In this document: positions 8,358-41,949 of the stretch, piece by piece | Position numbering within the stretch: position 1 is the first letter of the stretch | Layout of the letters: the number at the start of each line of letters is the position of its first letter | NCBI GenBank assembly: GCA_035622275.1 | Contig: DASPVQ010000020.1 | Location: 86,067 to 150,066, forward strand | Direction: 5' to 3' | Source: Thermoplasmata archaeon | Lineage (GTDB): Archaea; Thermoplasmatota; Thermoplasmata; Lutacidiplasmatales; UBA184 | DNA length: 64,000 nucleotides | Position numbers and translations under genes: made by a program | The notes under the pieces: generated by a model | Told to the model about the DNA's origin: nothing | What the model saw: only the letters and a program-made list of their open reading frames with translations | Database searches by the model: none

Positions 8358-8379
8358 GGCGGCTGCGCGTGGACTCCCA

Positions 8380-8392
8380 CGTATTTAATGAA
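8380..8392. promoter_or_regulatory. Shared AT-rich TATA element (TATTTAAT / ATTAAATA) between divergent idsA and TPR genes
   Basis: This is the only AT-rich stretch in the 55-bp divergent spacer. It lies about 26-32 bp upstream of the idsA GTG start (8357, minus strand) and about 23-30 bp upstream of the TPR ATG (8412, plus strand). Confidence 0.4.
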
Positions 8393-8411
8393 CCCTGCCT
8401 TGCGAACCTCG

Positions 8412-11162: not shown

Positions 11163-11171
11163 GAGGAGGTC

Positions 11172-12158
11172 GTGTCCCGTCCGCGCCTCCGGGAGCTCGG
11201 GCGCGATCGCCAGCTCATCGACACTGACTTCCGCGACACCGAGGGGCTCGTCGCCGCCTATCTCGTGCCGGAGGAGGAGGGTTGGATGCTCATCGAGACC
11301 GGCCCCACGAGCTGCCGGGAGGCGCTGCTCGCCGGCATCGATCGGGCCGGGGTCGAGCGCGCGGCGATCCGGCACGTCCTGGTCACCCACATCCACCTCG
11401 ACCATGCCGGCGGCGTCGGGGCGCTGGCCGACGCGCTCCCGCGCGCGACGTTCTATGCGCACGAGCTCGGCGTCCCGCACCTGATCGATCCGACGCGCCT
11501 GATCGCGAGCGCCCGGCGGGCCTGGGGCGCGGCGGCGGACCCCCTGTGGGGACCGATCGTCCCGGTCGCGGCCCCGAGGATCCAGGCCCTGCGCGGCGGG
11601 GAGCGCTTTCCCGTCCGGGGCGGGGAGGTCCGCGTGCTCGCGACGCCCGGGCACGCCCGGCATCACCTCGCCTTCTTCGATAGCGCGATCCGCGGGGTGT
11701 TCACGGGTGACGGGGCGGGCGTGCGCCTGGAGCACAGCCCGCGCGTGCGCCCGGCGGTGCCCCCTCCGGATCTCGATCTCGAGCAGCTCTTCGCGAGCGT
11801 CGAGGCGATGCGGGGCCTCGACCCGGTGCTGGTGCTCTACAGTCACTTCGGACCGAGTCCCGACGGTGCCGCGGACCTCGCGCGCTATCGCGGCATCGTG
11901 GAGGCCTGGCGGGACGTGGCGCTCGCCGCGGCGCGGGAGCGGGCCGACCCGGACTACGTCGCCGAGCGGCTGCGCGAGTTCGACCGACGGGGCGTCGAGC
12001 CGGCGGGCGCGGCGCGCGCGGGGACCGACGACCGCGCGGTCCTGGTCTCGGGATATGACCTGGCCGCGCGCGGATTTCTGCGCTACTTCGAGACCCGCGG
12101 GGTGGTGACGGTCCCGGGCGAGCGCGAGGGATCCGGTCCGGTCAGTCCACGAGCGTGA
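11172..12158 (+). CDS. MBL-fold metallo-hydrolase
   Basis: The metallo-beta-lactamase motif HVLVTHIHLDHAGG is present. It is 328 aa. Confidence 0.7.
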   Translation: MSRPRLRELGRDRQLIDTDFRDTEGLVAAYLVPEEEGWMLIETGPTSCREALLAGIDRAGVERAAIRHVLVTHIHLDHAGGVGALADALPRATFYAHELGVPHLIDPTRLIASARRAWGAAADPLWGPIVPVAAPRIQALRGGERFPVRGGEVRVLATPGHARHHLAFFDSAIRGVFTGDGAGVRLEHSPRVRPAVPPPDLDLEQLFASVEAMRGLDPVLVLYSHFGPSPDGAADLARYRGIVEAWRDVALAAARERADPDYVAERLREFDRRGVEPAGAARAGTDDRAVLVSGYDLAARGFLRYFETRGVVTVPGEREGSGPVSPRA

Positions 12159-13638: not shown

Positions 13639-13711
13639 AGCCCCGTGGTGTAGCGGCCAAGCATGCTGGCCTTTGGAGCCGGCGACAGCGGTTCGAATCC
13701 GCTCGGGGCTA
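13639..13711 (+). tRNA. tRNA-Gln (anticodon UUG)
   Basis: A cloverleaf was folded by hand. The acceptor AGCCCCG pairs with CGGGGCU. The anticodon stem is CUGGC/GCCGG and the anticodon loop is CUUUGGA. The T-arm is AGCGG-UUCGAAU-CCGCU. CCA is not encoded. An AT-rich box TTTAGTA lies at about -29. Confidence 0.85.
13694..13711 (+). repeat. Direct repeat copy 1 (tRNA-Gln 3' end, att-like core CGAATCCGCTCGGGGCTA)
   Basis: This 18-mer recurs identically at 16179-16196. Its first 16 nt also recur at 18068-18083. Confidence 0.7.
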
Positions 13712-13745
13712 TAATTATAATAATTGAGGGGCCCTAGGTCCGGCG

Positions 13746-13967
13746 ATGGCAACCGACCGGATGACCTCGATTTCCATCCATGCGTCGACGCTGAGGATGC
13801 TCCAGCCCTTCAAGAAGGGGGACATGACCTGGGACGACGTACTCATCGATTTCATCGAGGAGCATGTCCCGAAGGAGTTCGTCCGCGCGATGATCCGGGA
13901 GGCGGAGAAGGGCCCGGGCATCCCGTTCGATCAGGTGTACCAGGAGCACGTTCGGCGGAGGGGTTAA
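13746..13967 (+). CDS. Ribbon-helix-helix antitoxin-like protein
   Basis: It is 73 aa. The N-terminal beta-strand plus helices (TSISIHASTLRML...WDDVLIDFIEE) fit an RHH/CopG fold. It ends 4 nt upstream of the toxin gene. Confidence 0.45.
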   Translation: MATDRMTSISIHASTLRMLQPFKKGDMTWDDVLIDFIEEHVPKEFVRAMIREAEKGPGIPFDQVYQEHVRRRG

Positions 13968-13970
13968 CGC

Positions 13971-14255
13971 GTGCCCGTCGTGGACATGAGCCACGAGGCG
14001 AGGCGACAGTTCTTGCTGCTCCCCCCAGAAATCGCCGACCGGTTCAAGGAGCTCGCGGACCATCTCAGGGAGAACCCCCACCGACTCCCTCCTTGGTGTG
14101 AGGTGAAGTCCATCGGTCGAGAGGGCGGAAAGGAGGTCTTTCGAGCACGTGTGGGCGAGTATCGCGCGTCCTACGTGTTCGATGGGGAGGTCATTCGATT
14201 CACACGATTCCGCTTACGGAAACACATGGGCTATTCCTCGCTTCCGAAGTCGTAG
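13971..14255 (+). CDS. RelE/ParE-family toxin
   Basis: It is 94 aa and basic. The stretch VGEYRASYVFDGEVIRFTRFRLRKH resembles the RelE/ParE core. It forms an operon with the upstream RHH gene. Confidence 0.55.
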   Translation: MPVVDMSHEARRQFLLLPPEIADRFKELADHLRENPHRLPPWCEVKSIGREGGKEVFRARVGEYRASYVFDGEVIRFTRFRLRKHMGYSSLPKS

Positions 14256-14407
14256 CGAACATCGCCTCCAATCACTCGCCCGGGACCAAAGTCACCTCCC
14301 GTTCCCCAGGATCTCAGAGTCAGTGGCGCAGCCGGGGTCGCGACCGAACCGCTGACCCCAAACGCGGGCGTCCGAGCCAGAGGTCTGAGGGCGTCGCCCA
14401 ACTGGCC

Positions 14408-14800
14408 CTAAATCGCTTTGCGCCGGATGATTCCTTGACAGAGCCCCACAAGGTGGCCCTCAGGATCCGTGAAGTAGGCGAACGCGACTTTTCCTCGACC
14501 CTTCGACGAGGGACGCTTGTCGGGGAAGGCTGTTGGGTTTCCGACCCGCTTCCCACCGAGCCGCTCGACCTCACGAAGAGCCGCCTCGAAGTCTGGGACC
14601 TCAACGAAGAAGGTCAGATGGCCCCCGTTCCCAGTCGGATCTGCTCCCAGTCCCCCGCCAATCCCGCGGGATGCCGCCTCGGTGACTCCGTAGTCCGCGC
14701 CTGGAGCGACATCGGCCGCCTTCCACCCGAAGAGGTCGCCGTAGAAGGTTCTGAGACGCTGCCCACTCTTTCCCGTTACCTCGAACCACGCAACGGGCAT
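14408..14800 (-). CDS. VOC (glyoxalase/bleomycin-resistance/dioxygenase) family protein
   Basis: The VOC N-terminal strand MPVAWFEVTGKSGQRLRTFYGDLFGWKA and the C-terminus AYFTDPEGHLVGL are present. The start is taken at the internal ATG 14800. Confidence 0.65.
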   Translation of the reverse strand: MPVAWFEVTGKSGQRLRTFYGDLFGWKAADVAPGADYGVTEAASRGIGGGLGADPTGNGGHLTFFVEVPDFEAALREVERLGGKRVGNPTAFPDKRPSSKGRGKVAFAYFTDPEGHLVGLCQGIIRRKAI

Positions 14801-14829
14801 CGGAAGATCATTCTCTGCTCTCATCGGTT

Positions 14830-15312
14830 CTATACGGCACCGCCCTTGCCGGTCTCGAGATAGTTCTTCATGCTGCCCATTAGGTAGGTCCAGGCCCCAT
14901 CGCATGGGCCGAAGCAGGCGCATTTGGGTGTCAGACCCGCGTGGAGGAAGCGGAGTTCGGAGCGGCTGGCGCCTTTGGAGCCGATCTGGAAAAGGATCTT
15001 CGTCCCAATGAGCTCCTTCTTTTCGGACTGGTCAACGACCTTCCACTCGACCCTCGCCGGCCGCGTCGCCTTCACTAGGCTGAGCGTCCACACGTCGTTC
15101 GGGAATTTCAGGACCAGCTTGCTACCTTCCTTGTCCGAGCCGTCGATGTTCTTGCACCACCACCCGCGCAACCCGCCGGCGGTCGAGACGGTCTCGAAGA
15201 CGTCATTCGCCGAAGCGTCAACTTCGAGCGTCCGTGTGACTCCTGCAGGGGGTACAACGTCCACGTGCTCGACCTCGGTACTCGCCGTCATCGAACGGGC
15301 TATGGAATCCAT
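14830..15312 (-). CDS. SRPBCC (AHSA1/polyketide-cyclase-like) domain protein
   Basis: It is 160 aa with an alpha/beta grip pattern (GGLRGWWCKNIDG...ELRFLHAGL). The start may instead be the ATG at 15291. Confidence 0.55.
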   Translation of the reverse strand: MDSIARSMTASTEVEHVDVVPPAGVTRTLEVDASANDVFETVSTAGGLRGWWCKNIDGSDKEGSKLVLKFPNDVWTLSLVKATRPARVEWKVVDQSEKKELIGTKILFQIGSKGASRSELRFLHAGLTPKCACFGPCDGAWTYLMGSMKNYLETGKGGAV

Positions 15313-15420
15313 ACTATTTTATTCGACTACGGCGGAAAACCATAGCGAGCTCGAGTTGAGTACTCGACAGGCTCTGAGACGGGACGCGGCCGTGACCAAA
15401 TACTTGTTATTTCATAGGTA

Positions 15421-16062
15421 GTGCGGAGACCTCCGGTGATCGTCGGCCCCCAAGCGCACAACAAGGGACAGCCAGCCCCCTACCTGCTGTTCACACGCCC
15501 CGAGGGTTCGATTGGCTGCCCTATCCGCGCGTCACTAGGCGTACTCGGCCACAAGTGGTCGTTCATTATCCTTCGAGACGTAGCGTTCCTTCCCGCTCCG
15601 ACCTTCAACCTGATTCAGCACCGTAATCCGGGCCTGACGCCCAGGGTTCTTTCTGAACGCCTAAAGGAGCTGCGTGCGACGCAGCTCATCGAGAAGGTCG
15701 CCCATCCGAGGGACGAGCGTGTGTACTTTTACAGACTCACGGACAAGGGGCGGGACGCGATACCGGTTCTCGCTTCGATGATGCAGTTCGGAATGAAGCA
15801 TCTCGCAGAGAAGGTATTCGAGGACGGCAAGCCGAGGACAATGAAGGATTGCTTCCCGGGCCTGGCGGAACGTTTTCTCGGAGAACTTTTCGACTACGCG
15901 ATCTCAGACTTCAAGTCGGGCGTGGGACCCCCAGAGGGGATTCTTCTCTCGCCTTCAACCGCCCCGAAGTTCGGCGTGGCTGTCCGTAGCGGACCTCTGG
16001 CTTCCGGGGGACCGCGGCGAAAGAGGAAGCGCTTCGTGGTCCGACCTTCCCGTCCGCCTTAG
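15421..16062 (+). CDS. HxlR-family winged-helix transcriptional regulator with a C-terminal extension
   Basis: The HxlR core CPIRASLGVLGHKWSFIILRDV...LSERLKELRATQLIEKV...YRLTDKG is present. It is 213 aa. The start is GTG. Confidence 0.65.
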   Translation: MRRPPVIVGPQAHNKGQPAPYLLFTRPEGSIGCPIRASLGVLGHKWSFIILRDVAFLPAPTFNLIQHRNPGLTPRVLSERLKELRATQLIEKVAHPRDERVYFYRLTDKGRDAIPVLASMMQFGMKHLAEKVFEDGKPRTMKDCFPGLAERFLGELFDYAISDFKSGVGPPEGILLSPSTAPKFGVAVRSGPLASGGPRRKRKRFVVRPSRPP

Positions 16063-16178
16063 CAACGAGTTCCCGCTAAGCCAATTTCATCTCGCCGTGA
16101 CCGGATCGAGCGCTTCAATCACTCCCCCAAGGGGGTGGCAGCACCGTGCTTGTATCCCATTCTGAAGAAAAATACCAG

Positions 16179-16196
16179 CGAATCCGCTCGGGGCTA
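16179..16196 (+). repeat. Direct repeat copy 2 (18/18 identical to tRNA-Gln 3' end)
   Basis: It lies in an intergenic stretch after the HxlR gene. The flanking sequence is unrelated to the tRNA body. Confidence 0.7.
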
Positions 16197-16255
16197 CCCA
16201 TTCCGGCGGGCCCGCGTGGCGCTAGCCTTTTGGGCCGAACGCTAGTCCCCCTCAG

Positions 16256-17731
16256 ATGGCGATGCGGGAACCGGCCCCGCTGGACCTGTTCGCGTCGCGA
16301 CTGATGCGTCGCTTCCGGATTCCGGGACTATCGCTCGGAATCTCGAGGAACGGCCGACCGATTTTGTCCCGGGGCTACGGCTGGCGCGACCGCGAACTTC
16401 GACGGCCCGCCTCCTCGAAGACGGTGTACGGGATCGCCTCGATCACGAAGTCGTTCACCGCGCTCGCCATACTGCGGCTCGAAGAGGAAGGACTCCTGCG
16501 GGTGACGGACCCCGTCGTGCGCCATCTTCCGGAGTTTCGGAGTCCGAATCCCCGCTGGACGGCGAAGATCTCGCTCCACCACCTCCTCACCCACTCCTCC
16601 GGAATGCCGCCGTTGGCAGGGACGTACCTCTCCCAGCTTCGTTCGCGCGCCCGCGACCCGTCCTTCGACGCGCGCTCCGTCCGGCGGGTGGGCATCGACC
16701 TTGAGGCGGGGCCGCTCGACAGCTTCGAACAACTGCTGGAGTACCTCACTACGGTGCGGTACCAACCCATCGCTCCGCCGGGCCATCAGTTCAGCTACTC
16801 GAACGAGGGGTTCATGCTGCTCGGGGCGGTGATCGAGCGCAGCGCCGGCCGCACCTACGAGAACTATCTCGACGAGCAAATCCTACGACCGTGTGGAATG
16901 CGGCACACGACCTGCGATGCCGGGATCATGCTTCGCTACCCGGAAGTCACCACCCTGTACTCACCACAACGAATCCGATCCCGCGTGCGGATGGTCCCCT
17001 CCCAGAACTGCGGCATGGCCGGGATCCTCCGACCGGCGGGTGGACTGCTGACCAATATCGAGGACCTTCTGCGCTACCTCGAGATATTCCGCACCGGAGG
17101 GAGAGCCGGCCGGGAGCGGATCCTGACCCCGAAGAGCGTGAGCAAGATGCTCCGTCCCGCCATCCCCATCGACACGGACCGTTTCTACGGCTACGGCATC
17201 GTGGTTCGACCCGCCTACCATGGTCACTTGGTCGCGTACCATGGCGGCGGGACGAAGGGCGTCTCCTCAGAGTTCGCGGTCGTTCCACGCAAGGGCATCT
17301 GCGGGGCGGTTCTGGCCAACGTGGAGCGCGTCCCGTCGTTCAACGTCCTGTTCGCGGGGATCAATCGACAGCTCGGGTTACCGATGTCGACCCCGTTCTT
17401 CGAGACGCCGTCCGTGGTCTCCCGCGCCGGTCCGCTCGCGGAGTTCGAGGGGTGGTACTGGGGCGGGGACGGCTTCAAATGCAACGTGAGGGCGGGTCGG
17501 CGCGAACTGACCCTACGTTTCTGGGAGCTCGATGGTAACACGCACGTCGTCCGCGCGGCGCCGTGCGGAACCGATCGATTCTTGATTCGGCTCTTTGGCC
17601 TTCCGTGGACCATCAGATTCGTGCGGGATGCTTCGAAGCGGGTGTCCGCGGTGTTCGTGTCGTACTGGTGGTACCGTCGCCGCACCGAGCAAGAGGTTCG
17701 ACACGGCCGACGAAACCGGTTCGCCTGGTGA
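16256..17731 (+). CDS. Serine hydrolase of the beta-lactamase / penicillin-binding-protein (class C-like) family
   Basis: The SxxK active-site motif SITKSF is present, along with YSNEGF (YxN-like) and HGG (KTG-position) motifs. It is 491 aa. Confidence 0.75.
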   Translation: MAMREPAPLDLFASRLMRRFRIPGLSLGISRNGRPILSRGYGWRDRELRRPASSKTVYGIASITKSFTALAILRLEEEGLLRVTDPVVRHLPEFRSPNPRWTAKISLHHLLTHSSGMPPLAGTYLSQLRSRARDPSFDARSVRRVGIDLEAGPLDSFEQLLEYLTTVRYQPIAPPGHQFSYSNEGFMLLGAVIERSAGRTYENYLDEQILRPCGMRHTTCDAGIMLRYPEVTTLYSPQRIRSRVRMVPSQNCGMAGILRPAGGLLTNIEDLLRYLEIFRTGGRAGRERILTPKSVSKMLRPAIPIDTDRFYGYGIVVRPAYHGHLVAYHGGGTKGVSSEFAVVPRKGICGAVLANVERVPSFNVLFAGINRQLGLPMSTPFFETPSVVSRAGPLAEFEGWYWGGDGFKCNVRAGRRELTLRFWELDGNTHVVRAAPCGTDRFLIRLFGLPWTIRFVRDASKRVSAVFVSYWWYRRRTEQEVRHGRRNRFAW

Positions 17732-18067
17732 GGGCGAAGTCCCGAGGTCCCCACGAGAACGTGACTCTCGTGCGACGGGAGTCGAAGTTCATCAGGAGGA
17801 TTCGGATCGGGCTCGATTCCGTTCCCCGTCGATGGCGGAGCACGTCCCTCGACGCGCTCCATCGACGACCTCGACCTCCCTCGCCGACCTCGCGGACGGA
17901 CCCCCCGGCGAGGTTCTTCACAGGTCCACGACACCGGCGTCTTAGGCTACCCGAGCGTGCACGACAGCACGGTCGGACGGTACGCCGAGGTGGGAACCCG
18001 CGAGCTGAAGGACGCCTTGGATTCGGCCACCGGCCTGGGGGTGTGCACCGCGATCGGCAACCGACCA

Positions 18068-18083
18068 CGAATCCGCTCGGGGC
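18068..18083 (+). repeat. Direct repeat copy 3 (16/16 identical to tRNA-Gln 3' end)
   Basis: It sits in a high-GC region with no convincing ORF. Identity ends after GGGGC. Confidence 0.6.
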
Positions 18084-18812
18084 GGTCCGAGAGCGATTTC
18101 TGCCCAGTGCCCACATGAACACAACGATCGCGGCGGCCCGGCCGTCGCTACGCCACCAAAATTCGCTCCCTGCCCGTACCTCTCTTCCACGCCGTAGCGA
18201 CTGGTCCGACCGCGTTCGGGGGTTCGAACGGGCCACCGCTCCTTTCTAGGAAAGCAGCGCCGTTACCGACTGTCCGACACGTTCGCGGAAGCGGCCACGG
18301 CGAGGACTTGGCCACGCGAGAGGCCGGTCTTCCTCGGGAGGCTCGGTCCCGATCGTTCACGCCATGCGGGACGCTTCGGGCGAAGACTTCCGGGGCGGGG
18401 TCGAAGATTAGGTCAGAGCTCGACCGGAACCAAGGGGTGGATGCCGGCAACGCGCGGGACATCCTGATCGTCGCGGGGCGAGATCGGATGGCTGGCTGCG
18501 TCCCGGACGCGCTCGCCTTCGTCGAACTCGCGCAAGCCCGAAGAGTTCGGGTCGTCGCGGCTCCTCGAGCGACCGACACCGATTCTCCGGCAAGCCGGCG
18601 GACTCCCACCCTACATCCCCGGGCCGCGGAGTTCGAGAGTGAACTGACGCCGGAAGCGGACTCGAGCCGCGATCGCGGCCATCCCGGAAGGCCGCCAGCA
18701 TACCAAGACCCGGCGCGAGCCGGGCCGATCGCGGACGATCGTTCCCGAGGCCGCCGCACGGGTCCGCAGCTCGAAGGTTCGCGCGACGCACCGCTGCTCG
18801 GAACCCAGACGG

Positions 18813-19298
18813 TCACCGACCGCGAGCGGCCCGGGATCTCGCATCGGTCGCCAGGGCTTCGTGGCGATGGGGGTGCTCGTGCCCCGTCGTTCCCCCGGCG
18901 ACGGCCGGGGTGCCGAGCGTGTATCGGCCGTAGGCGATGCCCTTGACACCCCGCAGGTCCTCAGCGGCGGCGACCACCTCGTCGCTCCTTCCCACGAGAC
19001 CGATCAGCTGCATGCACGAGCCGCCCTCGAGATGGACGTGGGAGGAGGACCGGACGTGCGTCCCCCAGCGATGCTCGGCGGCGGTGAGCCGCTGGAGGAC
19101 ATTGGGGGTGTCATGTCGGTACACGAGCAGGACGCCGGCCACCGAATCGGAACCTGGGTCGCCCAGCGAGCGTTCCGCGAGCTCCTTGCGAATGAGAGCG
19201 CGGATCGCATCCGACCGGCTACGGCAGTTCCGCTCCTTCACCCAGCTGTCCAGAAGGGCGAGGAGCTCCCGTTCGAGGGAAACGCCCAGGCGCACCAC
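18813..19298 (-). CDS. nikR: Nickel-responsive regulator NikR
   Basis: An N-terminal RHH (VVRLGVSLERELLALLDSW...RSDAIRALIR) is followed by a C-terminal ACT-like metal-binding domain with His/Cys ligands (HVHLEGGSCMQLIGL, HEHPH). The GTG start choice is approximate. Confidence 0.7.
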   Translation of the reverse strand: MVRLGVSLERELLALLDSWVKERNCRSRSDAIRALIRKELAERSLGDPGSDSVAGVLLVYRHDTPNVLQRLTAAEHRWGTHVRSSSHVHLEGGSCMQLIGLVGRSDEVVAAAEDLRGVKGIAYGRYTLGTPAVAGGTTGHEHPHRHEALATDARSRAARGR

Positions 19299-19505
19299 GT
19301 AGTCGCCCCTTCGTTGCCGCAGATGGGCCGCCGGGACGGCGACATCTCCCGCTAGCGTTCGTCGTCGCGGGTGCCTCACCGTACCGCTCCTTTCGGGGAG
19401 GCGAGCTCGACTCCGTTCATAATGGTACGGATGGGGTCCCACCCGGCGCGACGCGTGCGTGTTACGATTAAGAAATACGACCGAAGCAGTTAAGAACCGC
19501 CGCGG

Positions 19506-20675
19506 TTGGCACGCTCAGTGTCTTTTGCCTCGACCGAGATTCGGAACCCGATCGTCCTTTCCCGACAGGAGTGGGTCAAGGTCATCTTGATCTACGCCGG
19601 CATCGCCGCCGCGACCGGCGTCGGGATCTATCTTACCTTCTGGGTCGGTACCCAGTACGCGATCTTCTGGCCGCTGGGCATCCTGGCCTACACGCTGGGT
19701 CTACGGCACGGCGTGGACGCCGACCACATCTGTGCCATCGACAACACCACGCGCAAACTGATCCAGCAGGACAAGCGCCCGACCACGGTCGGGACCTGGT
19801 TCTCCCTGGGTCACTCGACCATCGTCGTCGCCATGCTGGGTCTGCTGGTCGTGGCCAGCCGATTCATCGAGAGCAACCTGCCCGCCTTCGAGGCCGACGG
19901 AGCGATCTTGGGCACGATCATCTCCGGAGCGTTCCTCTACATCATCGCGCTGATCAACTTCCTGATCTTCTGGCAGGTCTATCTCATCTACCGGGAACTC
20001 CGGACGGGCCGGCTCGACCAGAAGAAGCTGGACGAGACGCTGCTGAAGCGGGGCTTCATGAATCGCTACTTCGGCAAGCTGTTCCGATTCGTCAACGAGC
20101 CCTGGCAGATCTATCCGATCGGGGTGCTGTTCGGACTTGGCTTCGACACCGCGTCCGAGGTCGCTCTGATCGCGATCACGGTGACGACGGCCGCCCTCGC
20201 GTTCCCGCTGTGGATGGTGATGGTGCTGCCGTTCATGTTCACCTGCGGCATGGTCCTCACGGACACCACCGACGGATTCGGGATGCGCTTTGCCTACGGG
20301 TGGGCCTTCATGAAGCCGATCCGGAAGGTCTACTACAACCTCACGATGACGGTGATTTCGGTCCTCGTCGCCATCGTGATCGGGACGATCGAACTGCTCG
20401 GAGTGCTCGCCTCGGAGCTCAATCTGAGCGGGGGACCGTTCGGGTTCTGGAACACGATGAACTGGTTGAACAACTCGAATGGGCCCGGCGACATCGAGAT
20501 CTGGGGCTGGTGCGGGATTCTCATCATCGCGCTGTTCTGCGGGTGTTGGGCGGTCTCTATCGCGATCTATCGATGGAAACACATCGAGGACGTGGGGTTC
20601 GGCAAGCCCCCGACGCCGGTGAACCCGGTCGACGCCGCGCCGGAGCCGGGCACTTCCTCCTCAGAACCTGCGTGA
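19506..20675 (+). CDS. NiCoT-family nickel/cobalt transporter (HoxN/NixA-like)
   Basis: The signature HGVDADH (HX4DH) lies in TM2, and GHSTIV is present. It is multi-pass. The start codon is uncertain (TTG 19506 or GTG 19518). Confidence 0.75.
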   Translation: MARSVSFASTEIRNPIVLSRQEWVKVILIYAGIAAATGVGIYLTFWVGTQYAIFWPLGILAYTLGLRHGVDADHICAIDNTTRKLIQQDKRPTTVGTWFSLGHSTIVVAMLGLLVVASRFIESNLPAFEADGAILGTIISGAFLYIIALINFLIFWQVYLIYRELRTGRLDQKKLDETLLKRGFMNRYFGKLFRFVNEPWQIYPIGVLFGLGFDTASEVALIAITVTTAALAFPLWMVMVLPFMFTCGMVLTDTTDGFGMRFAYGWAFMKPIRKVYYNLTMTVISVLVAIVIGTIELLGVLASELNLSGGPFGFWNTMNWLNNSNGPGDIEIWGWCGILIIALFCGCWAVSIAIYRWKHIEDVGFGKPPTPVNPVDAAPEPGTSSSEPA

Positions 20676-20909
20676 GCGCGGGATCCCGGTCGAGGATCCC
20701 GGGCGGGCCCGCGGCGAACGGAGACGGGGCAGGTTCCACCGAAGGGGGGGAGCGTGTTCGGCGGCGGACGGCCGTAGGCTACTCCTTCCCTCCCACGTCG
20801 TGGCGAACCGACCCGTCGAGCGCGAGGTCCCGGACACCGACGACCCGCGTCTCCGTGGATATACGTATCCCGACAATATTTACATAGCAAGAACTCATCC
20901 ACCCGCTTC

Positions 20910-22826
20910 GTGGCGGGCGCAACCGCGGCCGTCGACCAGGTCCTCGTCGCGGACGCTTCCGATAAGCAGCTCCGCCGCGCGCTGTCGTTTCAAGATCTCT
21001 TCATGATCTCGTTCGGCGGGGTCGTTGGCTCGGGCTGGCTCTTCGCCGTCGCGGCCTCCTCGCACCTCGCGGGCCCGGCCTCCGTGGTGTCGTGGATCAT
21101 CGCGGGGATCTTCATGATCGCCATCGCCCTCTGCTTCTCCGAGACGGCTTCGGCCCTGCACAAGACGGGCCAGCTCGTGCGCGGTCCGCTCTACACCCAC
21201 GGTGGTTTCACCGGGTACATCATCGGCGCCGCCTACATCCTCGGATCGATCACGGTCCCGGCGATCGAGGCCGAGGCCGTCATCACGTATGCGAGCACCT
21301 ACGAGCCGACGTGGCTGGGTTCGAACGGGCTGATCACTCCGACCGGCCTGGTCTTCGCCGTTCTGCTCCTGGTTGGATTCTTCTTCCTGAACTACGTCGG
21401 CGTGCGCTTCCTCGGCGCCTTCAACACGGTCGTGACGTGGTGGAAGTTCATCATTCCGGTGTTGACGATCATCTTCCTGTTCACGATCTTCCACTCGACG
21501 AACTTCACCGTGTCCGGCGGGTTCATCCCGTTCGGATGGCCCGGGGTCTTCATCGCGATCCCGTCGGCCGGCATCGCATTCGCCTACCTCGGGTTCCGGG
21601 GCGCGGCGCAGTTCTCGGGCGAAGCGAAGAACCCGCAGCGCGACGCGCCGAGGGCGATCATCCTGTCGATCACCGCGGCCGTGATCCTCTACGTCCTGCT
21701 CCAGGTCGTGTTCATCGGCGCCATCAACTGGGGCGCGAACGGTCTGGCGCCGGGCGACTGGGCCGGCCTGAGCTCGGTCACGACGACGCTGTACTCGGCG
21801 CCGTTCTACACGGTCATGCAACAGGCCAGCGTCGCGCTGCTCGGCGGGTTCGCGACGATCCTCCTCATCGACGCCATCATCTCGCCGTCGGGGACCGGTT
21901 GGGTGTTCCTGGGGGAGGCGACGCGCGCGGTCTACGGAGTCGGCGCGGACGGATTCTTCCCGCGGGGCCTATTGAGCATCCAGCGCCGGACCCGGATCCC
22001 TTGGGTCGCGCTCATCGCGACGACGGTGGTCGGCGGGATCTTCATCATACCGCTGCCGTCCTGGTACCTGTTTGCCGGGTTCGTGACCGACGCCTTCACC
22101 ATCTCGCTCCTCATGGGACCGCTGACCCTCTTCGTTCTACGCTGGCACGCCCCGAACATCAAGCGGCCGTTCCAGTTGCCCGGCGCGCTGGTCGTCGGCG
22201 GCCTCGCCTTCGTCGGCGGCTCCCTCGTGATCTACTGGTCCGAGTTCGGCGGGCTCTTCTACGTCTTCTCGGTGATCTTCATGGTCCTCCCGCTGTTCTA
22301 CTTCTTCTACGCACCGCGGAACCTGGGGATCAAGCCGTCCACGGCGCTCGCGATCGGGATCGTCCAGCTGGCCGTGGTGGTGATCGACACCGTCTGGGGC
22401 TACATCAACCTCTACATCGGCAACGTCGTGTCGCTCAGCCCGACGCCCGTCACGGTCTCGAACTCGACCCTCACGATGACCTTCGCGATCTACTACGTGG
22501 TGCTCCTCCTCGCGATTTGGGTGCCCACGCTCGTGACGACGATGCTCGCCCATCCGGACGGCAGGCGCATGATGCGCGCGGGCTACTGGGTCCTGGTCCT
22601 GCTCTCGGTCGAGATGGTGCTCTCCTGGTTCTCGGTGCTCGGCACGTTCCCGTTCGGGCCGTTGAACGGCAACCCGTACATCCCGTTCCCCTACGACACG
22701 ATCGCGATGGCGATCATCGCCGCGGGCATCTACGCCTGGGGCCTCATGAGCGGCTACCGCACCAAGGACCTCGCCGAGGTCGAGGCCCTGATGGCCCGAC
22801 CCGAGGCGGACGCCGCCACGGCGTGA
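20910..22826 (+). CDS. APC-superfamily amino-acid permease
   Basis: It is 638 aa with about 12 or more TM helices. The stretch FMISFGGVVGSGWLF resembles the APC consensus. Confidence 0.8.
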   Translation: MAGATAAVDQVLVADASDKQLRRALSFQDLFMISFGGVVGSGWLFAVAASSHLAGPASVVSWIIAGIFMIAIALCFSETASALHKTGQLVRGPLYTHGGFTGYIIGAAYILGSITVPAIEAEAVITYASTYEPTWLGSNGLITPTGLVFAVLLLVGFFFLNYVGVRFLGAFNTVVTWWKFIIPVLTIIFLFTIFHSTNFTVSGGFIPFGWPGVFIAIPSAGIAFAYLGFRGAAQFSGEAKNPQRDAPRAIILSITAAVILYVLLQVVFIGAINWGANGLAPGDWAGLSSVTTTLYSAPFYTVMQQASVALLGGFATILLIDAIISPSGTGWVFLGEATRAVYGVGADGFFPRGLLSIQRRTRIPWVALIATTVVGGIFIIPLPSWYLFAGFVTDAFTISLLMGPLTLFVLRWHAPNIKRPFQLPGALVVGGLAFVGGSLVIYWSEFGGLFYVFSVIFMVLPLFYFFYAPRNLGIKPSTALAIGIVQLAVVVIDTVWGYINLYIGNVVSLSPTPVTVSNSTLTMTFAIYYVVLLLAIWVPTLVTTMLAHPDGRRMMRAGYWVLVLLSVEMVLSWFSVLGTFPFGPLNGNPYIPFPYDTIAMAIIAAGIYAWGLMSGYRTKDLAEVEALMARPEADAATA

Positions 22827-36159: not shown

Positions 36160-37185
36160 TTAGGATTTGTGCGCGCCCGATCCGGCGGTCGACGCCAGGC
36201 TCGCGGCGAGCCGTTCTGCCGCCGTCTCGGGGGAGACCGGGTTCACCGGCAGCTCCCCGGCGAGCTCGAAGCCGTCCGGCCGGACCAGCCGGGGGACCAC
36301 CTCGATGTGCCAGTGGAACGGCGCGCCGAGGCGCTCGGGCAGGCCGTGCGCGCACCAGTTGAACGAGGCTCCCGGCACGACCGCGTCGAGCGCGCGCAGG
36401 AGCGCGGGCAACCGCTCGGCGAGCGCGTCGACCTCCGCCTCGGTCGCCTGGGCCAACGACGGCCGGTGGACCCGCGGGACGATGCGCATCTCGTAGGGGT
36501 GCTCCGAGCCGAAGGGAGCGACCGTGGTGAAGTGCTCGTCTTCGACGATCACGCGGCGAGCCTCGGTCCGCTCCGCGCGCGTGGTCGCCTCCAGGGGGCA
36601 GTCGTCCCCGCCTCCCGAGGAGCCCGGGCCGAACCGGGCCGCCTCCTCCTCGAGCCGCCGCGGGCGCTGCTCGGTCGCCACCAGCTGGGCGTGCGGGTGC
36701 CAGAGCGTCCCGCCGGACTCCGGCCCCCAGTTCTCGAACAGGACCGCGCCGGCGATGTCCGAGCGCGACTCGAGCAGGCGCAGGCGCTCGCGGTACATCC
36801 GGAAGAGCGACCGACGCGCCGCGGCATCCAGGTACGGCATCCCCGGCGCGTGGCGGGGGCTCTCGATCACCACTTCGTGGACCCCGCGAGCGGCAGCCCG
36901 CTGAAACGGCGCCCGGCTCAGAGGGCGCGCGGGGCTCAGGTCGACCGTCGGAAACTTGTTCGGGATCACTCGGATGGACCAGCCGGGCCCGTCGGGCCGG
37001 GAGCCTGTCGGTCGCAGGGCAGCGAGCTCGGGCGGAGTCCGGGCCTCGTGCCCCTCACAGAACGGGCAGTCCAGATCGTCGATCTGGACGGGGGCCGGGG
37101 CCGAGTGCTCGTTGGGTCGGGCGCCACGGCCCTCGGCGATGATCGTCCAGCGACCCGTGAACGGGTCCCGTCGCAGCTCCGACAT
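36160..37185 (-). CDS. galT: Galactose-1-phosphate uridylyltransferase (GalT, HIT superfamily)
   Basis: The zinc site CPFCEGHE and the HPH active-site motif (LWHPHAQ) are present. It is 341 aa. Confidence 0.75.
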
Positions 37186-37210: not shown

Positions 37211-38341
37211 CTATTGAGCCCGCGCCCCGGGATCGGCCCCGGGCGACCGTTCGTTCGCGGGCGCGAAGTGGTCGAGCGACGCTTGGCGCTGCGTTCGCTC
37301 CGACAGGTGCTCGGTTCGCACCGAGACGGTGCGGACCGAGCGGCCCCTCCGGGCCTGCTCCGACGCCCACAGCTCCCGTCCGAGGCGCAGCGATGCCGCG
37401 ACGAGCGGCTCGGGACCCTCGTGGGCGGCGCCGAGGGACCGGCTGCGCTGGGATCGCTGGAAATCCGCCCAGCGGAACGCGACCCCGACCGTCGCGTAGC
37501 GAAGCCCTTCGCTCTCGAGGCTTGATGCGAGGTCGACCGCGAGCGGCCGCAGGGCGTCGGCGAGCTCGCTCCAGGTCGTGGCGTCCCGAGCGAACGTGCG
37601 GTCGGTGGAGCGCGACCGCGGCCCGGAATCCACCTCCGTGGGATCGGTCGCCTCGCCCCGGGCGAGCAATACGAGGTCGCGTGCGAAGCCGCCGGCGCTC
37701 GATCGCAGCTCGGAGGGGCGCCGGGACGCTAGCTCGCCGATCGTCGTCACTCCGGCCGCTCGCAGGCGGGCCTCGGTCTTCGGCCCGACGCCGGGGATAG
37801 CGCGGACCGGCAGCGGGGCGAGGTAGCGCGCCTCCTCGCCCGCCCGCACCACCTGGATCCCGCCCGGTTTCGCGCGATCGCTGGCGATCTTGGCGACCAC
37901 ACGGCTCGTCGCGACGCCGATCGAGGCTGGCAGGTGGAGCTCGTCGGCGAGGGCCCGCTGGATCGTCAGCGCGAGGCAGCGGGCCGTCTCGGCATCTGCC
38001 ACGTCGAGGCGGACGGCCGCCTCGTCGATGCTCAGCGGCAGCACCTCGGGCGAGAAGCGTCGGAGGAGCGTCCGGACCTCCTCGGCGACGCGGCCGTACT
38101 TGGCGAAGTCGGCCGGTACCCAGATCGCGTTCGGGCAGAGCCGGGCCGCTTGCGCCACGGGCTGGGCGCTGTGGACGCCGAAGGCCCGCGCTTCGTAGCT
38201 CGCCGAGAGGACGACCCCCCGCGTCGGCGCGGCGGCCGGGGACGGCCCGACGATCACCGGTTGACCGAGGAGCTCGGGCCGGTCCCGGCTCTCGCAGGCG
38301 ACGTAGTAGGCATCGAGGTCGACGTACAGTGTCCAGTGCAT
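37211..38341 (-). CDS. dinB: Y-family DNA polymerase IV (DinB/Dpo4-like)
   Basis: The N-terminus is VDLDAYYVACE. The stretch SIDEAAV and a little-finger domain are present. It is 376 aa. Confidence 0.85.
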   Translation of the reverse strand: MHWTLYVDLDAYYVACESRDRPELLGQPVIVGPSPAAAPTRGVVLSASYEARAFGVHSAQPVAQAARLCPNAIWVPADFAKYGRVAEEVRTLLRRFSPEVLPLSIDEAAVRLDVADAETARCLALTIQRALADELHLPASIGVATSRVVAKIASDRAKPGGIQVVRAGEEARYLAPLPVRAIPGVGPKTEARLRAAGVTTIGELASRRPSELRSSAGGFARDLVLLARGEATDPTEVDSGPRSRSTDRTFARDATTWSELADALRPLAVDLASSLESEGLRYATVGVAFRWADFQRSQRSRSLGAAHEGPEPLVAASLRLGRELWASEQARRGRSVRTVSVRTEHLSERTQRQASLDHFAPANERSPGADPGARAQ

Positions 38342-38395
38342 GGCACGGCGCGGCCCGAGAGGCCGATGAGGGCTTGCCGCTTGCGCCCCCCCGGG

Positions 38396-39121
38396 CTACG
38401 GGGCGCCGAAGTCGACCGCCTTCGCGTCAACGGCGATCCCCCCCGGGCCGATCGCGTAGGGCTGCACCGTGCGCGCATGCGCCGTCCGGCGCATCTTGAG
38501 GATCCGCAGCGACAGGCCGATGCGGTGGCCGTCGGCGCCGCTGCTGTAGCCGAGGACGAGGACGCCGTCCGAGACGTACTCACTGAGCCCGTCCCGGCTC
38601 ACCTCGGGGTGACGCGGGTCCGCCTCCGCCGTGAGGACCGCGGTCGCACCGGCCTTGCGGCAGGCACCGGCGAGCGCGAAGAGCGTCGCGCGTCGGTTCG
38701 GCTCGTCGTCGCTCAGCATGTTGAGCAGCGAGACCGAGTCGACGACCAGCCGTTGCGCGCCGAGCTTCGCGAGCTCCTCGCCGAGCTCCCCCTGCACGCG
38801 GTGGAGGCTCTGGCGCGTCTCGCGCGGGTCGAGCCGGACGACCTTGAGGGTCCCCGCGTCGACCGCGGCGTCCACCGGCCAGCGGAACTGCCGTGCGGTT
38901 TCGAGCAGCTGCGGGATATCCTCTTCGAGGGAGAGAAAGACGCCCTTCTCCCCGGCCCGCGCGCCGGCCAGGAGGAACTGCAGGCCAAAGCAGGTCTTGC
39001 CCGTGCCGGGGAGTCCGGTGACCAGCACCACGTGGCCCTTGGGGAACCCTCCGCCGAGCATCTCGTCCAGCCCGCCGATGCCGGTCGGCACCCGCGGACG
39101 CGCCGACTCAGACCCGCTCAT
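38396..39121 (-). CDS. KaiC/RecA-superfamily ATPase (single KaiC-like domain)
   Basis: The N-terminus is PTGIGGLDEMLGGGFPKGHVVLVTG. Walker A is LPGTGKTCF. Walker B is LVVDSVS. It is 241 aa. Confidence 0.7.
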   Translation of the reverse strand: MSGSESARPRVPTGIGGLDEMLGGGFPKGHVVLVTGLPGTGKTCFGLQFLLAGARAGEKGVFLSLEEDIPQLLETARQFRWPVDAAVDAGTLKVVRLDPRETRQSLHRVQGELGEELAKLGAQRLVVDSVSLLNMLSDDEPNRRATLFALAGACRKAGATAVLTAEADPRHPEVSRDGLSEYVSDGVLVLGYSSGADGHRIGLSLRILKMRRTAHARTVQPYAIGPGGIAVDAKAVDFGAP

Positions 39122-40025
39122 ACTGCGTCGTCACCAACCCGCTCTTCGAGTTCACCTGGATCACGAACCGGCCCTGGTGCTCGACCGGCAGGCGGGCGAG
39201 CACCGGCATGAACTTCTCGATCAGCATCGCGCGCTGCCGGTGGCTCGAGGTCGCGCTGGCGAGCCAGCTGAAGTGCAGCACGCCGTCGACCGAGTCGAGC
39301 ACCGCCTGTTCGACCGGTGCCGGGGCCACCCCCTCGGACAGCACCACGTAGACGAGGCCGCCCCACTCCTTGGCCCTCCGCCGCAGCCCCTTGAGGAGCG
39401 CGAGCACGTCCGATGACTCGACCCCGCGCCGGACCAACAGGTCGGTGAGGGAGTCGAGGATGACGAGCTGGTTCCCCTCGATGCCGTCGATCGCGTCGGC
39501 GAGCGCCCGCAGCGGTCCCTCGGTGGGGGGCGCGGGCGCGGTCGTGGCGGCGAGCAGCGGCCGGGGCACGCTCGACCACGAGGCCGGCACGACCGTGTCG
39601 GCAAAGTAGGCGCTCGAGAGGTCGCCGAAGATGAGGTGACGGTCGAGCACGGTAGAGTAGACGCCGTCGAAGGCGCCCCGCATCTCGCCGATCATCTGCT
39701 CGCGCGATCGGCTCGTGCTGAGATAGATCACCGACTGGGGGTAGGAGAACGGGCCCTTCGCCTGGCCGAGGAAGAAGCGGTGGAGCCGCGGGTCGTCCCA
39801 GCGCAGCATGAGGTGGACGGCCGAGGTGAGCGCGAACTCCTGGTGGCCCGCGCCGGCGGTTCCGAACAGGAGGACGACCGACCCGGCGGGCAGCCCGCCG
39901 GTCAGGTAGTCGAAGTCGGGCACCCCGGTCGGCACGCGCGCGACGCCCCCGCTCAGCTCGGGAGGACGGAACGGGCGCGAGGAGCGCACCGGGATCACGA
40001 ACGGTCGAGGAGAATCGGTCGCCAT
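39108..40025 (-). CDS. KaiC/RecA-like paralogue with degenerate Walker A (probable pseudo-ATPase)
   Basis: The N-terminus PTGVPDFDYLTGGLPAGSVVLLFGTAGAGHQEF lacks the Walker A Lys/Thr (GAGHQ replaces GxGKT). Walker-B-like VILDSLTD is retained. It overlaps the downstream KaiC-like gene by 14 nt. Confidence 0.55.
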   Translation of the reverse strand: MATDSPRPFVIPVRSSRPFRPPELSGGVARVPTGVPDFDYLTGGLPAGSVVLLFGTAGAGHQEFALTSAVHLMLRWDDPRLHRFFLGQAKGPFSYPQSVIYLSTSRSREQMIGEMRGAFDGVYSTVLDRHLIFGDLSSAYFADTVVPASWSSVPRPLLAATTAPAPPTEGPLRALADAIDGIEGNQLVILDSLTDLLVRRGVESSDVLALLKGLRRRAKEWGGLVYVVLSEGVAPAPVEQAVLDSVDGVLHFSWLASATSSHRQRAMLIEKFMPVLARLPVEHQGRFVIQVNSKSGLVTTQYERV

Positions 40026-40073
40026 GGAGGCCGGGATCGACGCGGCTCGAGCCCGCGGTTGAGTATTAGTAGG

Positions 40074-41426
40074 CTATCCTGCACCCGCGGCCGACGACGT
40101 CCGGCGCGCCCCGTCCTTGAGGTACTCGCGCAGCAGCACGGTCGCGTAGGCGCCCTTCGGCAGGGCGAAGCGGAACCGCACCGCCCCCTCCTCTCCCGCG
40201 AGTCCCATCGGCGGCGCCGGCACGACGATCGGTCGGTACGTCCCCCGACTGGCGAGCTCGGGCGCCGCCCGGACCGCGAACTGCGCGCGCTCGATCCCCT
40301 CCTCCGCGAGGATCCGTTCGAGCAGGCGACCCGCCTCCCCCACGGATGGCGGCGAGTCGAAGCCGACGATCGGGCCACCGACCCGCGCGCCCCCCCGGCG
40401 GACGAGTTCGGCGCACTCGGCCCGGTTATCCGCCTCGACGGGCACGGAATCGTTTCCCCGGATCGTGCCATCGCGGCCGATCCGGAGGATCCGGTCGCCC
40501 TCGACGGGTCCGTCGAGCGGCAGGCCGCCGGCCCGGCGGTCAGAGAGCCACCGATTGAAGATCCACGACTGATAGGCATGCACGAAGAGCGTCCGCAGAT
40601 CCCGCGAGAGCGCGCGCAGGGCGCGCTCGGGGGAATGCCCCCGCGCGAGGTGCTCGAGCAGGCGATGCTCGAACCGGTAGGTCGCCGGGAACTCTCGGAG
40701 CGCACGGGCCGGATCGTGGTGCTCGGCGAACGCCACGCGGGCCGCGTCGCCCGGGCCGGGCTCGCCCTCCACCGGGCGCTCCGCCAGATAGACGTCGACC
40801 GCGCGCGCCAGATCTCCCCGAACGATCCAGCGCCCGACCTCGTGGGTGACCGGCCGCACCTCTCCAAAGCGCTGGGGCCCGAAAAAGTTCGGGAATCCCG
40901 GGCCCTCCCGCAGGCTCCGTTCGGTGCGCCGAAACGACTCGAGGGCCGCCTCGGTCCCCCGAGCGAGCTCGGAGACGACGATGTCGAACGCGTTCCCGTA
41001 GTGGTGCCCGAGCACGAGGCCGTCGCGTGCCCGGTACCAGCCCCGGAGCTCGACATCGCGCAGCCCGAAATCGGTCTCGGGGGGTGGGCCTCGATAGGAG
41101 AACAGCCGCTGGGAGACCGCGCGCCGGTCCTTCGTGCCGGACCAGTGGACCGAGCCCGGCGCGAGGTGGAGGCGGCGGGCCACCGCCTCCGCGAGCTCGT
41201 GTTGCTCCCAGTCCCGGCTGGCGAGCGTGAGGACGACGTAGCTGCCCTCGGGGTCCGGCAGCGGATGGCTCGAGATCTCCGTGACCCGGAACGCCTCGGC
41301 CGACGCCTTCAGCGCCCCGACGACGCCGGGAGTGTCGGTAGCGTAGAAGCCGAGACCGAGCCGTTCTTCCCGCTCGGGGGGCCGCCAGGCGCCCTCCGCC
41401 ACAGCGCGCGCGAGCGCGGCCGACAT
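40074..41426 (-). CDS. truD: tRNA pseudouridine(13) synthase TruD/Pus7 family
   Basis: The catalytic motif GTKDRRAVSQ (GxKD) and NFFGPQRFG are present. It is 450 aa. Confidence 0.75.
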   Translation of the reverse strand: MSAALARAVAEGAWRPPEREERLGLGFYATDTPGVVGALKASAEAFRVTEISSHPLPDPEGSYVVLTLASRDWEQHELAEAVARRLHLAPGSVHWSGTKDRRAVSQRLFSYRGPPPETDFGLRDVELRGWYRARDGLVLGHHYGNAFDIVVSELARGTEAALESFRRTERSLREGPGFPNFFGPQRFGEVRPVTHEVGRWIVRGDLARAVDVYLAERPVEGEPGPGDAARVAFAEHHDPARALREFPATYRFEHRLLEHLARGHSPERALRALSRDLRTLFVHAYQSWIFNRWLSDRRAGGLPLDGPVEGDRILRIGRDGTIRGNDSVPVEADNRAECAELVRRGGARVGGPIVGFDSPPSVGEAGRLLERILAEEGIERAQFAVRAAPELASRGTYRPIVVPAPPMGLAGEEGAVRFRFALPKGAYATVLLREYLKDGARRTSSAAGAG

Positions 41427-41469: not shown

Positions 41470-41949
41470 ATGATCCTCGCAACGGCCCGCGTGCTGAGGA
41501 ACGTCATCGAGATCAAGGTCGGGGACGCGCTCTGGGAGTGCCGGCCCGTCCAGTCGGAGCAGCAGGGTGTCGGCGCCGCCGTGGCGGCGCTGTTCTCCAC
41601 CGAGTACCACACGTTCCTGCCCGGCCGCCCGGCCGAGGTCCACTCGACGGTCACCTACCTGCGCAAGAACGACGAGATCCGGATCCAGGTGGGCGACCAG
41701 CGCTGGCGCACGGTCTCCCAGCCGCTCGGCCCGATGACGGTTGACTACAACGGGGTGCACCTCACCATCAACGAGCGCCTCACCGGCCGCTTCGGCATCC
41801 TGCGCGGGAACGAGTCCGTCGCGACCGTGCAGCTCGGCTTCCGCTCCTGCCGGCTCGAGGGCTATCCGAGCGAGCTCGAGCCGTTCTTCGCGAACCTCGC
41901 GCTCGGCTACGTGATCCGCACGCTCACTTGGGAGACGTTCTTCGCGTGA
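41470..41949 (+). CDS. Hypothetical protein
   Basis: It is 159 aa, starts at ATG, has no recognisable motifs and appears beta-rich. Confidence 0.35.
   Translation: MILATARVLRNVIEIKVGDALWECRPVQSEQQGVGAAVAALFSTEYHTFLPGRPAEVHSTVTYLRKNDEIRIQVGDQRWRTVSQPLGPMTVDYNGVHLTINERLTGRFGILRGNESVATVQLGFRSCRLEGYPSELEPFFANLALGYVIRTLTWETFFA

Follow-up and report, generated by a model that had tools for sequence, protein, structure and literature searches.

A widespread archaeal gene pair encoding a KaiC-like pseudo-ATPase and an intact KaiC-like ATPase: a candidate heteromeric switch with lineage-specific synteny to dinB

Introduction

What is the role of a gene pair in which an inactivated KaiC-like protein is encoded immediately ahead of an intact one, and does the gene for a translesion DNA polymerase that follows the pair belong to the same system? 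These questions are raised by a 64,000-nucleotide stretch of the genome of a soil-type Thermoplasmata archaeon (GenBank assembly GCA_035622275.1, contig DASPVQ010000020.1, positions 86,067 to 150,066; hereafter, the window), which has a G+C content of 72%. Four genes of this stretch encode, in the direction of transcription, the tRNA pseudouridine-13 synthase TruD, a KaiC/RecA-fold protein with a degenerate Walker A motif (iKaiC), a single-domain KaiC-like ATPase and the Y-family DNA polymerase DinB. Few uncharacterised regulators of archaea are as abundant as the KaiC-like ATPases.

A first-pass annotation, made from the sequence, read these genes as an operon in which an active and an inactive ATPase act with DinB and TruD as a damage-tolerance or recombination-mediator module. 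We have re-examined the locus by profile searches, structure prediction and a comparison of gene neighbourhoods. The dead-then-live gene pair is a real unit that is widespread in archaea, and its place beside dinB is a matter of local gene order, that is, of lineage-specific synteny and not of conserved functional coupling.

Results

The open reading frames (ORFs) bear out four co-directional minus-strand genes with the boundaries given in the first-pass annotation, including a 14-nt overlap of the two KaiC-like genes (Table 1), across which the sequence reads ...TATGAGCGGGTCTGA. This overlap suggests that translation of the two genes may be coupled. The pairing was followed in 80 loci of the window's clade, all of them from Thermoplasmata and including UBA184 and a 'Candidatus Lutacidiplasmatales' metagenome-assembled genome (MAG); the ATPase gene lies directly after iKaiC in 74/74 of the loci that reach far enough. 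Relatives from outside the clade (28-42% identity) were found in eight independent non-halophile contexts, which comprise other Thermoplasmata and Methanoculleus sp. 7T. In all eight, an intact KaiC-family ATPase gene of 231-260 aa lies directly 3' of iKaiC, with an overlap or a spacing of 2-10 nt in seven contexts and of 96 nt in the remaining one (L083). The active partners beside these distant iKaiC genes are orthologues of the ATPase in the window, with 40-49% identity, and all of their catalytic motifs are invariant. A second Thermoplasmata clade, represented by 80 metagenome loci, has the pair adjacent in essentially all loci of sufficient length, in the order Hel308 (opposite strand), LonB, a CTP-transferase-like gene, CinA, the pair and an aminotransferase (opposite strand).

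The motifs that the first-pass annotation quoted for the two proteins are all present. The active partner has a Walker A motif (GTGKT, within GLPGTGKTCF), a catalytic SLEE, a Walker B motif (LVVDSVS) and KMRR; GTGKT, SLEE and VVDS are invariant in 12 orthologues, and the protein is a member of PF06745 (185.4 bits against a threshold of 26.6, over model positions 1-228 of 231). The sequence of iKaiC, which is identical to NCBI 'hypothetical protein VEL82_06025 [Thermoplasmata archaeon]', carries PTGVPDFDYLTGG together with GTAGAGHQEF, a Walker A counterpart that has neither the Lys nor the Thr. The Walker B Asp is retained (ILDSLTD). In an hhalign alignment of the two family profiles, the SLEE of the partner faces S-T-S-R, i.e., Ser and Arg stand in place of the catalytic Glu pair, and the K-M-R of the partner faces K-F-M, which puts a Met at the Arg-finger position. 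With GAGHQEF as its P-loop, iKaiC lacks what a catalytically competent RecA-type ATPase requires. It falls outside PF06745 (25.2 bits against 26.6, over model positions 1-38 only), and the match to AAA_25 (26.6 against 27) is likewise N-terminal and sub-threshold.

The fold of iKaiC was predicted with AlphaFold2 (AF2). A model from a 12-sequence alignment reached a predicted local distance difference test (pLDDT) score of 58.8 and was discarded; the model used here, from 61 diverse sequences, has a pLDDT of 85.5 and a predicted TM-score of 0.83. Foldseek against the PDB placed SSO2452 (2w0m; 1.2e-14) first and KaiC CI chains next, with target TM-scores of 0.73-0.79 and E values of 1e-13 to 1e-14 for KaiC CI and SSO2452. 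A search of PDB sequences with the iKaiC-family profile gave the same ranking of SSO2452 and KaiC, with RadA at 1e-5 to 1e-6 and FlaH at 4e-5, and the iKaiC-family and active-partner-family profiles align with each other by hhalign (probability 96%, E 3.5e-9, 200 columns), which, with the fold, establishes homology despite the sub-threshold Pfam score. The model thus points to retention of the KaiC/aRadC fold, and the assignment of the upstream protein as a non-catalytic KaiC/RecA-fold paralogue is upheld.

More specific identities were also considered. With the ArlH model NF052589 (cutoff, 215 bits) the two KaiC-like proteins score 39.1 and 19.8 bits, so neither is an ArlH, a possibility that had been raised as a test of the first-pass annotation; the queries used detected neither archaellum genes nor T2SSE genes in the window. 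A RadA/RadB recombinase identity was rejected on RadB scores of 29.9 and 17.2 bits against 278 and on the RadA matches in the PDB, which reach only the values given above. Circadian KaiC proper (NF006799 / TIGR02655) was rejected because each protein has one domain and the scores are far under the cutoffs (active partner, 140.6 bits against 408 and 93 against 546; iKaiC, 21.8). The top NCBIfam model for the active partner is TIGR03880 (KaiC_arch_3), at 209.2 bits against a cutoff of 249.45, which leaves the protein outside that family. Among PDB sequences the active partner matches KaiC (2.8e-58) far better than it does SSO2452 (2.2e-18) or RecA/RadA.

It could be argued that iKaiC is a decaying, functionless duplicate and that the pairing is inertia after a tandem duplication. 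The Walker A Lys and Thr, the catalytic Glu and, in the window's clade, the Arg-finger residue have been lost, and the Pfam KaiC score is slightly sub-threshold, as such a history would predict. This explanation is effectively refuted by the conservation of the protein. The sequence AGxGHQEFALTSAVHLM shows no variation among 12 aligned homologues (65-76% identity), and relatives, recovered partly through the pattern GHQEFALT, occur with an intact reading frame in 132 species-level genomes; an assembly error at Walker A, which would have undone the first-pass assignment, is thereby dismissed. Across 80 relatives iKaiC is 60-77% identical (mean, 67%), more conserved than DinB (mean, 63%) or TruD (61.5%), and we conclude that the gene is under purifying selection. 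The confident fold prediction also argues against decay.

The same conservation extends to the family as a whole. A profile search of 1.84 billion cluster representatives gave 360 clusters with E <= 1e-3, of which 149 have E <= 1e-10; these 149 come from Thermoplasmata, Methanomicrobia and Halobacteria. Distant members were reached through this search of representatives and a further profile search, as the first two homologue searches had returned nothing below 65% and 79% identity, respectively. Of 88 full-length cluster representatives that were aligned, just 8 have the Walker A Lys and 7 a Ser/Thr at the next position, and the altered loop is itself highly conserved: G58 is retained in 78, G60 in 83, E63 in 72 and F64 in 77. 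The Walker B Asp persists in 67, and throughout the family S/T plus R/K stand in place of the Glu pair. These patterns identify iKaiC as a predicted pseudo-ATPase whose pocket has been remodelled and yet conserved, neither an assembly artefact nor a decaying gene.

Some features vary within the family. Six distant representatives (P0309, P0314, P0325, P0379, P0381 and P0385) have the Walker A Lys, mostly as K-S, the exceptions being K-R in P0325 and K-D in P0381; they may represent an active ancestral state. The iKaiC proteins of the window's clade have an N-terminal extension of ~28 residues, rich in Pro and Arg (MAxESPRPF...RP..RPP), in which R7 and P8 do not vary within the clade; other clades lack the extension, and confidence in its model is low. 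Four long members (P0270, P0273, P0331 and P0339) carry extensions or insertions without a recognised domain, and none of the four is a fusion of iKaiC with an active KaiC domain.

The linkage of the pair to DinB is not conserved across independent lineages beyond shared synteny. In the window's clade the whole ~13 kb is syntenic, in the order CBS protein, orf320, orf218, MFS transporter, orf159, truD, iKaiC, KaiC, dinB, (phosphodiesterase), galT, aIF5B and TFB, and adjacency within this clade therefore says little about function. Even there, dinB is intact and adjacent to the pair in 55/66 loci, or 56/66 with the inclusion of one locus (L001) in which dinB is split by frameshifts; it is displaced by 1.9-4.8 kb in eight loci and missing in two, so that the linkage is broken or lost in 10/66. 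Four of the inserted genes could be identified (a GltD-like oxidoreductase, a Na+/H+ exchanger, TauE and isocitrate lyase). They are unrelated and all lie on the opposite strand, which rules out obligatory co-transcription. Among the contexts examined, dinB and truD adjoin the pair in the order-level clade of the window and nowhere else: neither a Y-family polymerase nor truD was found in any of the eight independent contexts outside it, and dinB was found in 0/80 loci of the second Thermoplasmata clade.

These observations bear directly on the damage-tolerance proposal, under which the pair would be a Rad55-Rad57-like or aRadC-like mediator, co-transcribed with DinB in order to coordinate lesion bypass and strand exchange. 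This proposal draws on the top match of iKaiC, in fold and in profile, to SSO2452, a Sulfolobus RadA paralogue (aRadC), and on reports that RadC1 and RadC2 of Sulfolobus influence recombination and damage sensitivity (PMC4080772). It also draws on the position of dinB, which lies 54 nt downstream without an AT-rich promoter-like element and is adjacent in the 56/66 clade loci, and on three contexts in which a repair gene is found 3-5 kb from the pair (Hel308 in L081, RadA in L088 and an RQC/HRDC protein in L083). However, those repair genes lie at a distance of several kilobases, are for the most part on the opposite strand and differ each time, and by our own estimate (4-5% repair or replication genes; ~12 neighbours) some 40% of contexts would have one by chance. 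The affinity of the active partner is to KaiC, and a PIP-like sequence at the C-terminus of DinB (see below) leaves the usual PCNA route available to the polymerase. Together with the confinement of the adjacency to one syntenic clade and its interruption there by unrelated genes, these points make a repair module very unlikely, and this part of the first-pass annotation did not survive the comparison.

A search for transcription signals suggests that the pair is under its own control. In the 72% G+C setting of the window only three strongly AT-rich spots occur between 34 and 42 kb, which lie just 5' of truD, ~40 nt 5' of iKaiC (TACTAATA) and ~30 nt 5' of aIF5B. Since T[AT]CTAATA or a near variant is found 5' of iKaiC in about 73/78 related loci, mostly ~45 nt from the start, the pair very probably has its own promoter, separate from that of truD. 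Neither the 54-nt spacer before dinB nor the 3' end of the preceding gene contains an AT-rich element, and nothing comparable to the iKaiC element accompanies dinB in the window or in the closest relatives. As no promoter-like element of its own was seen, dinB, and perhaps galT too, may be read through from the promoter of the pair in this genome. In distant clade members, the spacer before dinB is 130-230 nt long and moderately AT-rich patches lie ~100-120 nt 5' of dinB, which may have its own promoter there. A bacterial-type promoter and terminator scan found nothing; such a scan is not appropriate for archaea.

The flanking genes were identified with family models. TruD scores 196 against a cutoff of 172 with TIGR00094. 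DinB matches the Pfam families IMS (5.5e-41), IMS_C (4.6e-17) and IMS_HHH (8e-8) and scores 256.3 against 256 with NF002677; VDLDAYY and SIDEA are readable in its translation, and it thus has the IMS domain, little-finger domain and catalytic acidic residues of a Y-family DNA polymerase IV. Residues 353-360 of DinB (QASLDHFA), near the C-terminus, resemble a PCNA-interacting (PIP) box. Packing on the same strand continues past dinB, with a GalT-like gene after 25 nt and aIF5B 24 nt further on; the block is therefore a mixed housekeeping cluster. In most relatives a type I phosphodiesterase / nucleotide pyrophosphatase gene lies between dinB and the GalT-like gene (e.g., L012, 8938-10302; most of L012-L074); it is missing from the window and its closest relatives. 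In L001, a long-read MAG contig, both dinB (8070-8788) and aIF5B (9919-11676) are split across reading frames, probably through assembly indel errors and not because they are pseudogenes.

Table 1. Positions of the pair, its neighbours and other features in the window.
Feature	Position	Strand	Remarks
truD, tRNA pseudouridine-13 synthase	40074-41426	-	Upstream neighbour; Pfam 3e-110
iKaiC, Walker-A-degenerate KaiC/RecA-fold protein	39108-40025	-	305 aa; predicted non-catalytic
N-terminal extension of iKaiC	39942-40025	-	Pro/Arg-rich
Intact single-domain KaiC-like ATPase gene	38396-39121	-	241 aa; Pfam KaiC 1.3e-54
Overlap of iKaiC stop and KaiC-ATPase start	39108-39121	-	14 nt; ATGAGCGGGTCTGA
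TATA-like element TACTAATA	40064-40071	-	~40 nt 5' of iKaiC start; predicted promoter of the pair
dinB, Y-family DNA polymerase IV	37211-38341	-	376 aa; Pfam and NCBIfam
PIP-like sequence of DinB	37262-37285	-	Residues 353-360
GalT/HIT-like nucleotidyltransferase gene	36160-37185	-	25 nt 3' of dinB; context only
159-aa ORF	41470-41949	+	Divergent from truD
tRNA-Gln	13639-13711		Sole tRNA gene of the window
Stretch of lower G+C	13639-22000		G+C 0.60-0.67 vs about 0.72

Several other features of the window and of related loci were noted. The 159-aa ORF that diverges from truD has no Pfam or PADLOC match and is 52-74% identical across 74 related loci. In a distant relative (L083), a 159-aa ORF beside an MFS gene likewise precedes the KaiC pair, and the ORF looks like a conserved unknown that is paired with the MFS transporter. 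A TFS gene (TFIIS zinc-ribbon) adjoins the pair in the same Thermoplasmata relative (L083, 7830-8135); in two haloarchaeal loci (L086, 7048-8727; L091, 5952-8120) iKaiC is followed by a coiled-coil protein without a Pfam family, DUF8135 and TFS. Far from the pair, a stretch of lower G+C starts directly after the tRNA-Gln gene. Its genes are of accessory type (glyoxalase, HxlR regulator, beta-lactamase-family protein, NikR, amino-acid permease), and the stretch may have been acquired as an island; no integrase was recognised in the ORFs that were scanned. PADLOC gave no meaningful defence-system match.

Discussion

Our results suggest that the pair encodes a heteromeric KaiC-like nucleotide switch with a non-catalytic subunit, a reading to which we assign a probability of roughly 60%. 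The proposal of an active/inactive complex is a reasonable inference because iKaiC is encoded immediately upstream of an intact KaiC-like ATPase gene, and translational coupling, strict co-inheritance and orthologous partners together point to a stoichiometric complex. Single-domain KaiC-like proteins, such as PH0284 and ArlH, form hexamers, and PH0284 (2dr3), which was deposited with six chains, is among the proteins matched by the active partner. In the mechanism that we propose, a two-gene module would yield first a dead protein and then, through translational coupling, an intact ATPase, and the two products, at about 1:1, would build a RecA-type ring. This ring could take the form of an alternating heterohexamer, as in F1/V1 alpha3-beta3, or of two stacked rings that mimic KaiC CI and CII. 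ATP would be hydrolysed by the downstream subunit only, with the dead subunit in a structural or regulatory role or serving as a platform for interactions. If other archaeal KaiC-like ATPases are a guide, the complex may be a nucleotide-dependent switch or signalling hub, with output partners that vary by lineage and that would include type IV pilus machinery in some. A regulatory switch is our best guess because archaeal KaiC-like ATPases (COG0467) are viewed as signalling hubs in work cited in PMC5847659 and because pilus genes are found in some contexts of the pair; any particular output is much less certain.

The pilus contexts also allow a narrower explanation, namely that the pair serves specifically as an accessory to, or regulator of, a type IV pilus-like (PilB3/TadC) machine, as ArlH is for ArlI/ArlJ. 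The pair of Methanoculleus sp. 7T divergently adjoins PilB3 (T2SSE) and T2SSF genes, which lie upstream of it (PilB3/TadC in L092), and in another lineage Pilin_N proteins and PilB3 lie downstream of the pair (L085 and L175). Moreover, KaiC families that include arCOG01172 and arCOG01173 have been linked to VirB11/TadC operons (PMC4858521). Nevertheless, no pilus genes are found near the pair in the window or in six other Thermoplasmata contexts, and both proteins are far under the cutoff of the ArlH model. We regard a dedicated pilus accessory as unlikely.

Several points weigh against a heteromeric switch. Pilus genes occur in 2 of ~10 independent contexts, which is only marginally above chance (p ~0.2 by our own estimate) and tells against the pilus explanation as well. 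We infer hetero-oligomer formation from gene coupling and co-inheritance, and the function as a switch would follow by analogy. Three haloarchaeal members have iKaiC without an adjacent active partner, which indicates that the dead protein can exist uncoupled. The Arg-finger Arg, which is present in 41/88 representatives, has been lost in the window's clade and in the clade of 40% identity. As the aligned residue is a Met in the window, the dead subunit may not stimulate the ATPase of its neighbour in the classical way. Finally, the identity of the pair with arCOG01172/arCOG01173, which its context suggests, is no more than probable.

A more speculative scheme would restore a role to DinB. Under this scheme the pair would be a split, two-polypeptide analogue of KaiC, in which a dead sensor and an active ATPase, each a ring or a set of subunits, make up a slow, nucleotide-driven timer or switch that has been wired, by co-transcription from a single promoter, so as to control or accompany DinB translesion synthesis in the Lutacidiplasmatales-like clade. 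If true, this wiring would be an archaeal counterpart of the Rad51-paralogue or ImuA-type accessory factors of error-prone polymerases; we consider it extremely doubtful. The lesson for annotation is a negative one, namely that the translesion polymerase beside the pair is not to be counted as a component.

The value of the pair lies instead in what it may represent, a heteromeric RecA-type switch in which one subunit is a pseudo-enzyme; it is a clean candidate for this role and is strictly co-inherited in Thermoplasmata and Methanomicrobia. The P-loop of the dead subunit (G-x-x-G-A-G-x-x-E-F) is altered but strongly conserved, and this retention of a glycine-rich loop with Glu-Phe suggests that the pocket may still bind a ligand. 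It raises the testable question of whether G-A-G-x-x-E-F has kept nucleotide binding or accommodates another ligand.

The first-pass annotation did not recognise the locus as a described archaeal system, which is half right. Inactivated KaiC-like domains ('iKaiC') are named in PMC5847659, which cites Makarova, Galperin and Koonin (2017, mBio), and iKaiC of the window resembles them in being an archaeal, single-domain KaiC/RecA-fold protein with a disrupted ATPase site that is paired with another KaiC-family gene. Two KaiC families of Methanomicrobia, arCOG01172 and arCOG01173, have also been described beside VirB11/TadC (PMC4858521). That context is the one of the Methanoculleus sp. 7T member, beside a T2SSE/T2SSF operon, whereas the pair of the window has no pilus genes. 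The searched literature turned up no experimental work on a dead/live KaiC pair of this kind and no papers on DUF7125.

Comparison with better-known systems places the pair close to, and yet apart from, each of them. Cyanobacterial KaiC, whose CI domain is matched by the active partner at 1e-45 to 1e-58, joins CI and CII in tandem, in a fixed N-to-C order, and forms a double-ring hexamer. Here two coupled genes supply the two domains, and a stacked-ring or mixed-ring assembly is conceivable by analogy with that domain order. However, cyanobacterial KaiC is one polypeptide in which CI is a slow ATPase, whereas here the polypeptides are separate and the first is dead, and no KaiB-like thioredoxin-fold family is present among the domain calls for the genes that flank the pair. 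SSO2452 (aRadC), the top structural and profile match of iKaiC, keeps an intact GTGKT. Rad55-Rad57 is a heterodimer of RecA-like paralogues with an unequal need for ATPase activity; unlike aRadC and Rad55-Rad57, the pair has no conserved association with recombination genes. ArlH (FlaH) is likewise KaiC-like, has a single domain and works together with a T2SSE-type ATPase, and some relatives of the pair adjoin PilB3, but ArlH is a single gene and not a dead/live pair, and no archaellum genes lie near the pair in the window. The F1/V1-ATPase alpha3-beta3 ring, in which catalytic and non-catalytic RecA-fold subunits alternate and are encoded by adjacent genes, offers a mechanistic analogy to the proposed heterohexamer, although homology is confined to the RecA fold and the non-catalytic F1 subunit keeps the P-loop Lys that iKaiC has lost. 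We conclude that the pair is an uncharacterised example of a kind already described, and that the DinB/TruD 'operon' around it is ordinary lineage-specific synteny.

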